A DNA stretch of 13,133 nucleotides, taken from the IMG/VR virus record IMGVR_UViG_3300045988_162215, one strand, 5' to 3'. Position numbers and translations under genes: made by a program. Source of the stretch: a virus. Under the pieces are notes generated by a model. That model made no database searches, was not told the origin of the DNA, and was given only the letters and a program-made list of their open reading frames with translations. Positions 5,893 through 13,112 of this stretch are shown here, piece after piece (the stretch's first letter is position 1; every line of letters begins with the position of its first letter).

Positions 5893-5921
5893 ATTATATC
5901 AAAAATATTAAAGTTTTTCAA
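5893..5921 (-). promoter_or_regulatory. leftward promoter (-35 TTGAAA, 17-bp spacer, extended -10 TGaTATAAT) for operon 5858->3488
   Basis: Read on the minus strand: TTGAAAaactttaatatttttgaTATAAT. Back-to-back with the rightward promoter. Confidence 0.6.
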
Positions 5922-5947
5922 ATTGGTATTGCTATGGCGGCCGCAAC

Positions 5948-5976
5948 TTGACAAACAAAAATAAGTTTGTTATAAT
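5948..5976 (+). promoter_or_regulatory. rightward consensus promoter TTGACA-17-TATAAT for plus-strand cluster
   Basis: TTGACA 5948-5953, spacer aacaaaaataagtttgt, TATAAT 5971-5976. About 95-nt leader to ATG 6076 with RBS GGAGGGAG. Confidence 0.7.
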
Positions 5977-7029: not shown

Positions 7030-7317
7030 ATGAAAGCTGTAACCACAGATAGACCAGTTAAGTATGAGCCGGGAGAATTTTTTCAAATTTCAAATAAAGG
7101 TTTGAAGGCAGCAGCTAGTCTTAATAATAATGGATTATTATTGTGGTTATATTTGTGTAAATTTAAGAGTGGTACTAAGTGGAAGATAAGCCCGCAGGCT
7201 ATCAGTAATGAACTGGGGATAACTTTAGATAAAGCTAAGAAGGTTTCAACTATTGGATACCAAGAATTAGTTGCAGCAAATTTTATTAGAGATGATGTGT
7301 TCTACGCGGACGGTTAA
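7030..7317 (+). CDS. winged-helix DNA-binding protein resembling RepA_N / phage replisome-organizer N-terminal domain (95 aa)
   Basis: Motif GLLLWLYLCKF...WKISPQAISNELGITLDKAKKVSTIGYQELVAANFI resembles the initiator winged helix of Firmicute plasmids and phages. RBS GGGGGT. Lies directly upstream of the iteron array. Confidence 0.6.
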   Translation: MKAVTTDRPVKYEPGEFFQISNKGLKAAASLNNNGLLLWLYLCKFKSGTKWKISPQAISNELGITLDKAKKVSTIGYQELVAANFIRDDVFYADG

Positions 7318-7320
7318 ATA

Positions 7321-7480
7321 AAAGTGCTAAAATGGCACTTTTTAGATACAAGGAGTCTATTAAAAAGTGCTTAATCGGCACTTTTATATACAAGGAAAAG
7401 TGCTTAATAAGCACTTTTTAATGAGCAGAAAGTGCTTAATTGGCACTTTTTTCTAAGGAAAAGTGCTTAATCGGCACTCT
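7321..7480. repeat. array of five 21-bp palindromic iterons AAAGTGCTTAAT(N)GGCACTTT at 7321, 7364, 7397, 7429, 7460 (spacing 43, 33, 32, 31 bp)
   Basis: Seen directly. Copy 3 (7397-7417) is a perfect palindrome AAAGTGCTTA-A-TAAGCACTTT; the others differ at 1-3 positions. Spacing is about three helical turns. Confidence 0.85.
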
Positions 7481-7520
7481 AATATATAAATAGAGAATAA
7501 ATACTAAATAAATAAATAGA
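7481..7520. other. 40-bp AT tract (4 G/C in 40) immediately after iterons; candidate DNA-unwinding element
   Basis: aatatataaatagagaataaatactaaataaataaataga. Confidence 0.5.
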
Positions 7521-7521
7521 C

Positions 7522-7578
7522 GGTATAAATAATCTTTACGTAGTTCGCTTCGCTCACTACTCCAAGATTATTTATACC
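7522..7578 (+). repeat. hairpin A: 15-bp stem GGTATAAATAATCTT/AAGATTATTTATACC, internal loop, 4-bp inner stem GTAG/CTAC, 13-nt loop TTCGCTTCGCTCA
   Basis: Perfect inverted repeat seen directly. Confidence 0.8.
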
Positions 7579-7625
7579 TTTAGGCGCGGCGTAGTGATGT
7601 AATGTTACAAAGGGGCCGGCGTAAA

Positions 7626-7680
7626 GAGATTAAAACCTTGGAATAATGAGCGAAGCGAATTATGGAATGGTTTTAATCTC
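7626..7680 (-). repeat. hairpin B: 12-bp stem GAGATTAAAACC/GGTTTTAATCTC, internal loop, 4-bp inner stem ATAA/TTAT, 13-nt loop TGAGCGAAGCGAA (exact reverse complement of loop A)
   Basis: Same architecture as hairpin A with a different stem sequence. The loop is identical when read on the opposite strand. Confidence 0.8.
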
Positions 7681-8335: not shown

Positions 8336-8501
8336 CAGGACATTTTGTCTTTATAATAGTGTTTTGTTTTTAGATAGCACTTTATGTTGAATAGTGTTTT
8401 TGTCGCTGGATAGTATTTTGTCTTTGATAATGTGTTAGATAGCATTTTTGTCTTTAGATAGTGTTAGATAGTACTGTATAGTGTCAGATAGTGTTTTTAT
8501 C
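8336..8501. repeat. degenerate direct-repeat array, units TAGATAGTGT / TTTTGTCTTT alternating with about 10-bp periodicity (at least 10 units)
   Basis: e.g. tagatagcat|ttttgtcttt|agatagtgt|tagatagtac|tgtatagtgt|cagatagtgt|ttttatctgg. Lies between convergent genes 8046..8294 and 8640..9008. Confidence 0.7.
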
Positions 8502-9047: not shown

Positions 9048-9076
9048 ATTATATAATAATTTTTCAGAAGTGTCAA
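9048..9076 (-). promoter_or_regulatory. consensus promoter TTGACA-17-TATAAT (minus strand)
   Basis: Reverse complement of tgtcaa 9071-9076 and attata 9048-9053, spacer 17. Confidence 0.65.
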
Positions 9077-9205
9077 AGGCACGAAAGCATATACCAGTAG
9101 TAAAATTGTAATTAGCTGTAACTATATCTTTTCTATTGTTGCGGGTATTTGTTCGTTTTTATATGAGAATAAGAAAAAACGAAGCTAATTTACCTCCCCT
9201 ATATA

Positions 9206-9234
9206 ATTATATCAAAAATACGAAAAAATGTCAA
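9206..9234 (-). promoter_or_regulatory. orphan promoter TTGACA-17-TATAAT followed by SD GGGGAGGT with no start codon or ORF downstream
   Basis: Minus strand reads TTGACAttttttcgtatttttgaTATAATtatataGGGGAGGTaaattagcttcg. The nearest in-frame start is a non-canonical ATT giving an 18-aa ORF. Confidence 0.5.
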
Positions 9235-9369
9235 GAAAGATGCGCTGAGGCATTTATCAATAGAATCACTGTAATTCGATACAGTAAGCCATTTTTTATT
9301 CTGACGGATATTTTTACGTTTCAGATAGAAAACGAGCAAATTTACAACAAAAGTAAGTCAAACATCTAA

Positions 9370-9469
9370 TTTCGGGATCCGTATGGCGGTTTTCAGATTT
9401 CAAACAACCAGGAAAAAAAGCCATATAGGGTCTGGTCGTGGGAACTCGGCGTTGCCCGGTGGTCAACGC
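9370..9469 (-). ncRNA. candidate small RNA transcribed leftward from promoter 9476-9504; begins with GC hairpin GGCGTTG/CAACGCC
   Basis: Consensus promoter with no ORF of at least 40 aa and an RBS downstream over 460 nt. The transcript 5' end folds into the 9448-9470 hairpin. The 3' end is undefined. Confidence 0.25.
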
Positions 9470-9475
9470 CGCGAC

Positions 9476-9504
9476 ATTATACCACATTTTATGTGCTTTG
9501 TCAA
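9476..9504 (-). promoter_or_regulatory. consensus promoter TTGACA-17-TATAAT (minus strand) driving an ORF-less transcript
   Basis: tgtcaa 9499-9504 and attata 9476-9481 on the plus strand. Confidence 0.6.
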
Positions 9505-10467: not shown

Positions 10468-10516
10468 AAAACATACCCCTTTTCTTAATAAATTCTTAAC
10501 TCTTTGTTACATATAC

Positions 10517-10545
10517 ATTATAACATATTTTGTAAGGTTTGTCAA
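10517..10545 (-). promoter_or_regulatory. promoter Pm1 TTGACA-17-TATAAT immediately upstream of gene 10069..10467
   Basis: tgtcaa 10540-10545, attata 10517-10522. Confidence 0.65.
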
Positions 10546-10608
10546 GCATTTTTTTTATTATTTTCTTTTCGGTTTAGAACCTTTAATCTTCCTTGACCTT
10601 ACATACTT

Positions 10609-10637
10609 ATTATAACATATTTTTTAATGTTTGTCAA
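10609..10637 (-). promoter_or_regulatory. promoter Pm2 TTGACA-17-TATAAT (part of 175-bp tandem duplication)
   Basis: tgtcaa 10632-10637, attata 10609-10614. About 50 bp identical to the Pm3 copy. Confidence 0.6.
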
Positions 10638-10783
10638 TAGGTTTTTTAAGATTTTTAAGAAATAACAATGATTTTAGGCGGATATGGAATAAGGCTCAAC
10701 CAAAATTGCCAACTCATTATCCCTTTTATTATTGGTTTTTTATTTCCTTTATCATTGTTTTCTTAACTTTATCTTACATACTT

Positions 10784-10812
10784 ATTATAACATATTTTTT
10801 AATGTTTGTCAA
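10784..10812 (-). promoter_or_regulatory. promoter Pm3, exact duplicate of Pm2
   Basis: cttacatacttattataacatattttttaatgtttgtcaataggttttt occurs at 10598-10646 and again at 10773-10821. Confidence 0.6.
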
Positions 10813-10893
10813 TAGGTTTTTGAAAGTTTCTAAAATTTGTTTTCCTCACGACCGAGGTTGCTATTTTGTTTTCTTTCCTTACCTTGTAAATAC

Positions 10894-10922
10894 ATTATAA
10901 CAAAATATTTATAGAAAATCAA
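10894..10922 (-). promoter_or_regulatory. weaker promoter Pm4 (TTGATT-17-TATAAT)
   Basis: attata 10894-10899. The -35 is rc of aatcaa at 10917-10922. Confidence 0.35.
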
Positions 10923-10927
10923 TATCG

Positions 10928-10980
10928 GAAAATTGCACAAAATTCGGGATGTACAAGGTTAAAAAATTTGTGCAATTTTC
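10928..10980. repeat. inverted repeat GAAAATTGCACAAA ...25 nt... TTTGTGCAATTTTC
   Basis: 14-bp perfect arms at 10928-10941 and 10967-10980. Abuts the -35 of the plus-strand promoter at 10984. Confidence 0.7.
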
Positions 10981-10983
10981 CTA

Positions 10984-11013
10984 TTGACAAATGCCAGAGC
11001 TATGTGGTATAAT
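10984..11013 (+). promoter_or_regulatory. plus-strand promoter TTGACA-18-TATAAT firing rightward into GC hairpin 11019-11041
   Basis: TTGACA 10984-10989, TATAAT 11008-11013. Confidence 0.55.
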
Positions 11014-11046
11014 AGTTCGGCGTGCAAGGGGCGTGCACGCCGCGCC

Positions 11047-11075
11047 ATTATAACACATAATGAATTATTTGTCAA
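11047..11075 (-). promoter_or_regulatory. minus-strand promoter TTGACA-17-TATAAT; its transcript begins with hairpin 11019-11041 and runs through IR 10928-10980
   Basis: tgtcaa 11070-11075, attata 11047-11052. Confidence 0.55.
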
Positions 11076-11092
11076 CCCCTAAATTAAAAAAA

Positions 11093-11119
11093 TGTGGGCG
11101 AGTTTAGGCTCGCCGCACA
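11093..11119. terminator. bidirectional intrinsic terminator (TGTGGGCGAG/CTCGCCGCACA) flanked by AAAAAAA upstream and TTTTCGATTTCC downstream
   Basis: A-run 11085-11092 gives a U-run for the minus-strand gene 11133..11360. The T-rich 11120-11131 serves the plus-strand sRNA candidate. Confidence 0.65.
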
Positions 11120-11132
11120 TTTTCGATTTCCA

Positions 11133-11360
11133 CTAATCTTCAATGATTAACTTCGCTTTAAGTTTACGAATAGGTCTTTCTGAAAAATCACAAATAACTC
11201 CTTCTATAGCTCCGCTGTCAAGGTCAACAATATATGTATCATAATTATCAGCACATAACATACAAGGTTTATTATCATCTAAAAATGTAAAAACTTCACC
11301 ATTATCTAAATCTTCGCAACTTAAATATCCCTTAACTTCAATCTTTCCAATAATTTCCAT
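11133..11360 (-). CDS. hypothetical acidic Cys-containing protein (75 aa)
   Basis: RBS AAAGGTGA 5 nt before ATG 11360..11358 (the track start was an upstream GTG). Promoter at 11404-11432. Confidence 0.6.
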   Translation of the reverse strand: MEIIGKIEVKGYLSCEDLDNGEVFTFLDDNKPCMLCADNYDTYIVDLDSGAIEGVICDFSERPIRKLKAKLIIED

Positions 11361-11403
11361 TTTAATCACCTTTTTAACCTTTCTTTCTCTTGTTTATATA
11401 CTT

Positions 11404-13017: not shown

Positions 13018-13046
13018 TTGACAAAAAGCCGGGACTATGATATACT
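13018..13046 (+). promoter_or_regulatory. plus-strand promoter TTGACA-17-TATACT firing into GC hairpin 13054-13080
   Basis: Homologous in position and sequence to the 10984-11013 promoter (shared ...TATAmTrGAAGTTCGGCG). Confidence 0.5.
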
Positions 13047-13053
13047 GGAAGTT

Positions 13054-13080
13054 CGGCGCGCTGCGATCCATGGCGCGCCG
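13054..13080. repeat. GC hairpin CGGCGCGC-tgcgatccatg-GCGCGCCG (homolog of hairpin 11019-11041 with a different stem sequence)
   Basis: 8-bp perfect stem. Flanked by TTCGGCG on the 5' side and CGCCAATTATAACAC on the 3' side, as at 11019-11041. Confidence 0.75.
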
Positions 13081-13083
13081 CCA

Positions 13084-13112
13084 ATTATAACACAAAAATC
13101 AATTTTTGTCAA
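13084..13112 (-). promoter_or_regulatory. minus-strand promoter TTGACA-17-TATAAT convergent with 13018-13046
   Basis: tgtcaa 13107-13112, attata 13084-13089. Its transcript starts in the GC hairpin. Confidence 0.55.

Follow-up and report, generated by a model that had tools for sequence, protein, structure and literature searches.

The stretch of viral DNA analysed here (IMG/VR record IMGVR_UViG_3300045988_162215; 13,133 nucleotides (nt), one strand; hereafter the window) carries two promoters that face each other across a GC-rich hairpin at 11018-11042. Sequence comparison indicates that this facing-promoter hairpin cassette is one copy of a unit conserved in many large uncultured gut phages, and the architecture of the cassette, its conservation, the structural selection on its hairpin and the antisense orientation of its backward promoter were all established at that level. 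In the functional reading that we favour, and to which we would give even chances, the unit is a conserved, mosaic, intergenic boundary cassette of the phage early region that would yield an antisense RNA stabilised by a 5' hairpin, with promoter competition where a sense promoter abuts that hairpin. In gene direction (the minus strand around the cassette), it opens with the upstream operon's terminator and, in some copies, a perfect sense promoter flush with the GC hairpin; there follow the hairpin, a 4-9 nt spacer (mostly 7-9 nt and A/T-rich in relatives), a perfect backward promoter, two copies of the element TTTGTGCA around a TCCCGAA box, and the next sense promoter.

The window is AT-rich (32.6% GC) and was found to contain 17 perfect matches to TTGACA-N16-18-TATAAT against 0.04 expected. 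Fifteen of these lie on the minus strand and precede small minus-strand genes with strong ribosome sites; the plus strand has two, one of them at 10984-11013. This plus promoter (TTGACA-18-TATAAT, 12/12, TG-extended -10) is oriented antisense and faces a gene-direction, or 'flush', minus promoter of consensus sigma-A type at 11075-11047 (TTGACA-17-TATAAT, 12/12, TG-extended), as the initial annotation had stated. The GC hairpin that it had placed between them was also recovered, and every element proved to lie within 1-2 nt of the coordinates given. The hairpin has a 9-base-pair (bp) stem and a 7-nt loop (CGGCGTGCA-AGGGGCG-TGCACGCCG) and occupies the 33-nt gap separating the two -10 hexamers, 4 nt from the minus -10 and likewise 4 nt from that of the plus promoter.

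Start sites were placed by the usual -10-to-start distance of 6-8 nt. The predicted starts, at ~11020 (plus) and ~11040 (minus), fall 1-3 nt inside the stem; the promoters do point at each other as had been claimed, and their starts do not flank the hairpin. Each predicted RNA would open with a 6-8-bp hairpin at its extreme 5' end. Because both starts fall inside the stem, the complementarity of the two RNAs would be ~21 nt, that of the hairpin alone, and the antisense RNA pair proposed earlier shrinks to that overlap. The plus strand at 11019-11131 contains no open reading frame (ORF) of at least 40 amino acids (aa), and just a 15-codon frame without a ribosome site; the minus transcript reaches no ORF until 10467. 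The 113-nt plus RNA was predicted to fold into the 5' hairpin and the terminator described below (-38.4 kcal/mol, z = -3.5).

A pattern scan of viral contigs, in which many of those fetched were 80-200 kilobases (kb) long, located units in contigs of 80-140 kb (L007, L009, L014, L019, L034, L039, L050, L056, L064, L070 and L071) and near-identical orthologs of all three units of the window, the cassette and two others described below. A relaxed scan with a hairpin finder showed the unit to be one variant of a far commoner arrangement. Across 45 family loci, a GC hairpin was present no more than 11 nt after 124 of 514 perfect promoters (24.1%), as against 2.06% of random positions, and 82 of these 124 promoters do not fit the pattern used for retrieval. 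Orientation relative to genes was scored from gene calls based on ribosome-binding sites, which replaced a noisy estimate from ORF coverage. Hairpins starting 6-10 nt after the -10 belonged to 45 antisense and 5 co-oriented promoters, and hairpins 0-5 nt after it to 13 antisense and 26 co-oriented promoters. In gene maps of L171, L106 and L078, the units were positioned between operons and on the opposite strand.

Read in gene direction, the common form consists of a stop codon, a terminator, the GC hairpin, AAATTTCC and the perfect backward promoter (ATTATACCA...TGTCAA), and continues through TAGGnAAATTGCACAAA...TCCCGAAATTTGTGCAA and ~10 nt to the next sense promoter, a ribosome site and a gene; more than 40 cassettes have this layout. 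Since most relatives carry the antisense promoter, the hairpin and the terminator of the upstream operon only, these three were taken as the conserved core, and the plus promoter at 10984-11013 is its core promoter. The form in the window is the common form with an extra sense promoter inserted between terminator and hairpin.

Facing -10 elements were scanned for with the interval left unspecified, which gave at least 120 matches. With a facing pair defined by no more than one mismatch from consensus in each promoter, 93 distinct pairs were counted in all fetched viral loci and the window, 48 of them enclosing a GC hairpin. Peaks in the -10 to -10 gap were formed by 10 pairs at 33 nt, 19 at 37 nt and 12 at 38 nt. 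Spacing to the stem was asymmetric: the gene-direction promoter stood 2-5 nt from it in 19 of 25 modules, and the backward promoter, set off by a spacer resembling GGAAATTT, stood 7-9 nt from it in 16 of the 25. On this evidence the face-to-face arrangement is a conserved module, not a chance one.

Covariation was measured in all 19 pairs with a 37-nt gap, aligned without selection for a hairpin, over an 8-bp helix. Paired cells made up 86.9%, compared with 63.3 +/- 2.9 in shuffled alignments (0 of 500 shuffles as high) and 28-45% in controls that offset one side of the helix by 1-3 columns. Changes on both sides were seen in 7 of the 8 helix pairs, with a covariation score of 0.49 versus 0.18. 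These values show that the hairpin is under structural selection, its sequence drifting while its pairing is kept; its loops and linkers are not conserved in sequence. In an alignment of the window with its orthologs L014 and L034, the plus promoter was identical and 160 nt on the backward-promoter side were nearly identical; the sense-promoter spacer, the terminator and the gene on the other side were unrelated. The L034 stem carries a compensatory double change from T-A to A-T. By this compensatory change and the one-sided identity, the hairpin was read as both structurally selected and a mosaic junction. Three other readings of the hairpin were tried and rejected: a solitary CRISPR-like repeat (stems and loops are unconserved and there is no repeat handle), a Chi or restriction site in the GC stems (there is no constant 5-8-mer) and a protelomerase site or perfect palindrome (the loops are non-palindromic).

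The 14-bp inverted repeat on the far side of the plus promoter (arms 10927-10941 and 10967-10981) had been taken for an RNA element of the minus transcript, a view that is not retained. Each arm contains TTGTGCA, part of the upstream element TTTGTGCA(A). In the right arm (10967-10981, plus strand) the element reads TTTGTGCAATTTTCC and its TTGTGCA begins 16 nt before the -35 of the plus promoter; in the left arm (10927-10941, minus strand) it stands 18 nt before the -35 of the next gene-direction promoter, at 10922-10894 on the minus strand (TTGATT-17-TATAAT, 10/12), which diverges from the plus promoter and is identical in L014 and L034. Between the two elements lies a conserved TCCCGAA box (10943-10949, minus strand), which occupies the same place in most cassettes and also occurs in S1-type units. 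TTGTGCA was counted at 135 positions no more than 60 nt upstream of a -35 in the family loci, and the distance from its start to the -35 was 16-17 nt in 78 cases, 26-27 nt in 45 and 37 nt in 4. The phasing is one helical turn. From this phasing to the -35s, the inverted repeat was read as a pair of upstream elements for two divergent promoters, and the high stability of the minus-RNA structure in this interval (z = -5.7) as a by-product.

The layout TTGCACAAA...TCCCGAAATTTGTGCAA-N-(-35) is kept in 40-odd cassettes. TTGTGCA, the only conserved flanking motif, is phased upstream of -35 hexamers and also stands before host transfer RNA (tRNA) and T-box promoters; it would make a better upstream element or activator site than an operator. 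An operator reading of the inverted repeat had been entertained and was replaced after the phasing test and the matches to host promoters. Genomes of gut Clostridia (Oscillospiraceae, Ruminococcus, Lachnospiraceae) commonly contain the upstream element joined to a perfect promoter, directly before tRNA genes and T-box leaders; in bacterial loci L211, L220, L231, L237, L247, L297 and L303 it takes the form TTTGTGCA-N8-10-TTGACA-N16-18-TATAAT. This suggests that TTTGTGCA is a host-type enhancer of strong promoters, pointing to the host group, and a lineage-specific upstream promoter element copied by these phages. The promoter at 10922-10894 is followed by a leader-like AAGGTAAGGAAAG stretch without an ORF and looks like the remnant of a lost gene. 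It lies at one end of a minus-strand region (10470-10930) that contains three tandem perfect promoters (10545, 10637, 10812) besides this 10/12 promoter at 10922. Two of them (10637 and 10812) are within a 67-nt repeat that is 91% identical. No gene follows any of these promoters, only leader-like remnants; gene loss appears to have left them behind as solo cassettes.

A bidirectional terminator hairpin was located at 11093-11131, 2 nt past the stop (11133) of the minus-strand gene 11133-11369. Its minus-strand site (11114-11097, tail CACATTTTTT) has the better U tail (TTTTTTT); the plus-strand tail is TTTTCGATTT, and in the plus-strand fold a longer stem, interrupted by one bulge, precedes UUUUCGAUUU. 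The hairpin that the initial annotation had called a textbook terminator of the plus RNA is thus present, and it belongs primarily to the minus gene; for the plus RNA it is likely to be the 3' end or a 3' protecting hairpin. Relatives likewise have a sense terminator as the second hairpin past the backward unit, preceded by at least five A (a sense U tail) in 16 of 35 units and followed by at least five T in 5 of 35. Because so few have a T run in the antisense direction, a cleanly terminated ~110-nt RNA is not a conserved feature. Orthologs of the second module of the window (L071) also have no U tail in the antisense direction, and in L071 the backward RNA would continue into tRNA genes. The first module of the window ranks among the better-terminated cases, and a stable product between both hairpins could also come from 3' trimming. 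In L071, just upstream of the ortholog of the second module and adjoining a tRNA-Trp gene, the Rfam full tRNA model matched 137 nt at 1104-1240 of the minus strand (45 bits), a locus not called by ARAGORN; it would be a tRNA gene split by a ~65-nt insert.

In the reading favoured here, the backward (plus) promoter would fire towards the end of the upstream operon, and its non-coding RNA would start 0-3 nt before or inside the GC stem-loop, which would act as its 5'-terminal stabiliser. In Bacillota, unpaired 5' nucleotides are required by both RppH and RNase J1, and 5' ends are also known to be stabilised by a ribosome site close to the start. The phage promoters directly before genes have a strong ribosome site near the start instead of a hairpin. 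A stabilising role for the hairpin is suggested by its position, no more than 3 nt from the predicted start on either side, together with the requirement of Bacillus subtilis RppH (BsRppH) for at least two unpaired 5' nucleotides (PMC3997798). If the hairpin is selected as a stabiliser, the backward RNA would be a product and not noise. It would extend ~105 nt, as far as the upstream gene's terminator hairpin, as a stable cis-antisense RNA, pairing with the 3' end of the upstream mRNA, and the backward stream of polymerases would collide with read-through and insulate the operon boundary. Action in cis at the boundary would be the simplest role for an RNA so variable in sequence. The hairpin would in addition mark the place where modules recombine.

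With a sense promoter directly beside the hairpin, only one open complex could form at once, since the starts are ~21-25 nt apart and an open complex covers DNA to ~+20; overlapping initiation complexes are mutually exclusive, a relation termed 'promoter competition' (PMC6593788). Such competition would divide or tune output between the sense and antisense promoters. As nothing suggests cooperativity, a graded partition is likelier than a bistable switch. The transcriptional interference proposed in the initial annotation is accordingly kept as competition of initiation complexes, and the compact switch built on it finds no support.

Several observations weigh against the boundary-cassette reading. 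All start sites across the family are predictions from consensus spacing. The 18-nt spacer of the plus promoter and the TATACT hexamer of the second copy are both slightly sub-optimal. Most antisense units lack a U tail past the second hairpin, and their RNA may extend far into upstream genes. The stems are almost perfectly Watson-Crick, and the counts of G.U against A.C pairs that were to show the folding strand (12 versus 6 in spaced units, 11 versus 3 in flush units) are biased by a unit list gathered allowing G.T on the scanned strand; a role at the DNA level (cruciform, recombination) thus keeps some probability. A boundary or antisense role alone leaves the frequent hairpin-flush sense promoter unexplained, and RNA from such a promoter would lose 2-5 bp of the stem.

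A doubtful alternative is that the module is a compact bistable switch working by mutual interference, with a ~110-nt plus-strand small RNA acting on trans targets and the minus RNA as its antisense partner. Facing promoters whose initiation complexes overlap are indeed present and conserved, and the plus RNA has a plausible terminator in the window. It is opposed by the lack of any cooperative element or regulator gene that could give bistability, by an RNA overlap of just the ~21-nt hairpin, and by the antisense U tail, which the majority of relatives lack, the orthologs of the second copy among them. Nothing indicates trans targets, as the unconserved loops and linkers leave no conserved seed. 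The antisense promoter moreover stands alone in most cassettes (45 units), and for that reason the core function cannot require the facing pair.

We consider it similarly doubtful that selection acts on the DNA, with the GC palindrome kept as a cruciform or hairpin recombination junction of the kind described below for T4-type phages and the promoters carried as module cargo. The coincidence of the mosaic junction between related phages with the hairpin is what such a junction would produce, as are loop sequences found in either orientation across cassettes, stems near-perfect on both strands, and the solo gene-less promoters that adjoin the cassette at 10470-10930; mapped crossovers of T4-type phages lie inside the stem-loop and next to it (PMC2839356). 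Homologous recombination, however, requires shared sequence, and here the hairpins differ and the flanking promoters are what is common. The strict asymmetric spacing to the -10s (2-5 versus 7-9 nt) and the rule of antisense orientation would also go unexplained.

It is unlikely that the backward promoter serves chiefly as a helper, boosting the divergent sense promoter 45-70 bp behind it through negative supercoiling or polymerase recruitment, with the hairpin and terminator merely keeping its transcript short and harmless. Each antisense promoter does stand back-to-back with a sense promoter, both have a phased TTTGTGCA, and the paired sense promoters are often imperfect, a comparison of strength that is biased by a search demanding near-perfect antisense promoters. 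Termination in the antisense direction is mostly poor, and a helper role would require no GC hairpin.

An equally improbable, more far-reaching proposal is that the 33-38-bp facing pair is a repressor-free sensor of host state, in which the sense-to-antisense firing ratio at immediate-early boundaries would report cell energy and set early-operon expression versus silencing. The gene-direction promoter, with a GC-rich discriminator and a G start in the hairpin, would be of the ribosomal RNA type and need high GTP and supercoiling; the backward promoter, with an A/T-rich discriminator, would form stable open complexes; and the shared downstream DNA would have one holder at a time. Were this true, a hibernation-type decision would be taken without a regulator protein. 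Processive antitermination or pausing, in which the nascent hairpin would alter the polymerase (as put/nut or Q-type elements do) and the short RNA would be extended later, is very improbable: a strong promoter with a short terminated RNA recalls lambda PR', and a -10-like TATTAT lies ~28-33 nt downstream of the minus start, but known elements need conserved sequence where here pairing alone is conserved, no Rfam match was obtained and no antiterminator gene was identified.

A protein adjoining one of the units in relatives is 28-43% identical to its counterparts in EF1-like phages (Enterococcus phage EF1) and in the gut phage phAss-1. The phAss-1 paper describes a 136-kb, siphovirus-like phage tentatively assigned to Clostridia hosts, without discussion of promoters, and names Enterocloster phage PMBT10 as a relative whose host is known. 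Face-to-face modules are present in phAss-1 as well. Near-consensus promoters of the complete phAss-1 genome cluster at 120-136 kb (22 on the gene strand versus 3 on the opposite one), with hairpin units at 129-133 kb. The host group of the clade is probably gut Clostridia, and its phages would employ the host sigma-A polymerase. Megablast of the whole window against deposited phages and tblastn of a 238-aa window protein returned no match, and Pfam and PHROGs gave generic matches only (SprT-like and HAD/nucleotidase-like). Rfam 15 covariance models had no match at the window units at E up to 1, nor at the units of L171, L106 and L071 at E up to 0.1, and no tRNA genes were found in the window.

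Two further units occur in the window, where the motif TATAAT-N1-5-GCGGCG-N9-25-CGCCGA is present three times against 0.00 expected. A second face-to-face module at 13018-13112, whose recurrence had been noted in the first reading of the sequence, comprises a plus promoter (13018-13046, 11/12, -10 TATACT), a hairpin (13054-13080) and a minus promoter (13084-13112); its -10 to -10 gap of 37 nt is the modal geometry of the family. The third homologous unit (9447-9504, minus strand) has a promoter (9476-9504) and a flush GC hairpin (9447-9471) with no facing promoter. With its surroundings (9380-9504, minus strand), it represents a separate conserved type that was also seen in L019, L078, L131, L162 and L184. 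The type runs in the order flush GC hairpin, C-rich stretch, C(C/T)ATATG(G/C), 6-7 T and, ~50 nt on, TTCCCGAAA; structural support was obtained for its 5' hairpin only. Some 430 nt of this region (9050-9475) contain three perfect promoters without a convincing ORF.

Other repeats and promoters were recorded elsewhere in the window. At 7312-7490, just past the plus ORF 7030-7317, five copies of a 23-25-nt palindromic unit (AAAAGTGCTTAATCGGCACTTTT) lie 31-43 nt apart (period ~32) and look like an iteron-like array or hairpin stack; weak miRNA-like Rfam matches there were attributed to chance. Short direct repeats on (T)TAGATAGTG / GATAGCA, with periods of 10 and 29, fill part of a non-coding gap at 8340-8500 where plus and minus gene blocks converge, and could mark an origin or an array of protein-binding sites. 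At 7531-7672, non-coding DNA with GC-rich islands (GGCGCGGCG, GGGGCCGGCG) contains an inverted repeat of 39 nt whose arms are 79% complementary and lie 64 nt apart. Back-to-back promoters at 5893-5976 (minus 5921-5893, 11/12; plus 5948-5976, 12/12; GGCGGCCGC between them) mark the switch from a minus- to a plus-strand gene block.

Transcription signals of large uncultured gut Clostridia phages have had essentially no experimental study, and the cassette offers a precise, testable piece of the early programme. Three features stand out together: a promoter of maximal strength that opposes the genes, a hairpin at the start site whose pairing is preserved through compensatory change, and facing promoters at a fixed distance of 33-38 bp, which would make two polymerases compete. 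If the antisense RNAs are made, operon boundaries would be the source of an abundant class of phage non-coding RNA that has escaped annotation. The parts might also be of use in synthetic biology of Bacillota, as very strong promoters, a candidate enhancer motif, 5' stabilisers and insulators. A literature search covering antisense promoters of SPO1/Herelleviridae and face-to-face hairpin modules of phages found no description of the cassette, and four known kinds of system were compared with it.

One resemblance is to the promoter-early stem-loop (PeSL) cassettes of T4-type phages, which likewise combine a repeated host-type early promoter, an A/T-rich upstream region and a GC stem-loop or terminator, and which lie between small orphan genes and mark mosaic junctions (PMC2839356, PMC4122927). 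The window shares with them repeated consensus promoters among small genes (repeat families D1-D8), a terminator (11093-11131) 18 nt upstream of the minus -35, as in the units of relatives, and, in the alignment, a hairpin and sense promoter at which identical sequence gives way to unrelated sequence. A PeSL has a single promoter with the stem-loop upstream of it as terminator, whereas the cassette has an extra perfect backward promoter, a GC hairpin at the backward start site besides the ordinary terminator, and TTTGTGCA phased to the -35. The lineages are unrelated, phAss-1/EF1-like large phages of Bacillota as against T4-type myoviruses.

The switches of P2 and 186 (186 pR/pL; Dodd et al. 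1990 and Callen et al. 2004, both cited in PMC3675496) also have two facing promoters at short range, cis interference and overlapping transcripts (mechanisms in PMC6593788). There, each promoter expresses a regulator (the repressor versus Apl/Cox) under operators; the backward RNA of the cassette is non-coding, and no repressor is evident. The starts in the cassette are closer (~21-25 nt) and share a start-site hairpin, and at that distance interference would be by competition for binding, not mainly by collisions.

The 3'-overlapping cis-antisense RNAs of Bacillota (RatA/txpA, SR4/bsrG, par of pAD1) are short non-coding transcripts convergent with a gene; they end at or in the terminator of that gene and could bring about cleavage of the 3' end of its mRNA by RNase III. 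The cassette resembles these pairs in its predicted convergent RNAs and in the bidirectional terminator that the plus RNA would have in common with gene 11133-11369. It differs in that the upstream genes are ordinary small early genes and not ~30-aa hydrophobic toxins (the product of 11133-11369 has 78 aa and is acidic and, by eye, not membrane-like), that it recurs after many operons per genome, and that it has a start-site GC hairpin; the units follow many unrelated operons as well as tRNA genes. With the B. subtilis 5' stabilisers of the aprE leader, ermC and hbs (as referenced in PMC3997798), it would share a stable stem-loop within a few nt of the 5' end, if the starts are where they are predicted; stabilisation by the cassette is presumed from position, and its hairpin is common to two opposed transcripts. 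What appears to be new is the backward promoter with a start-site hairpin, set in a cassette that otherwise resembles known kinds.

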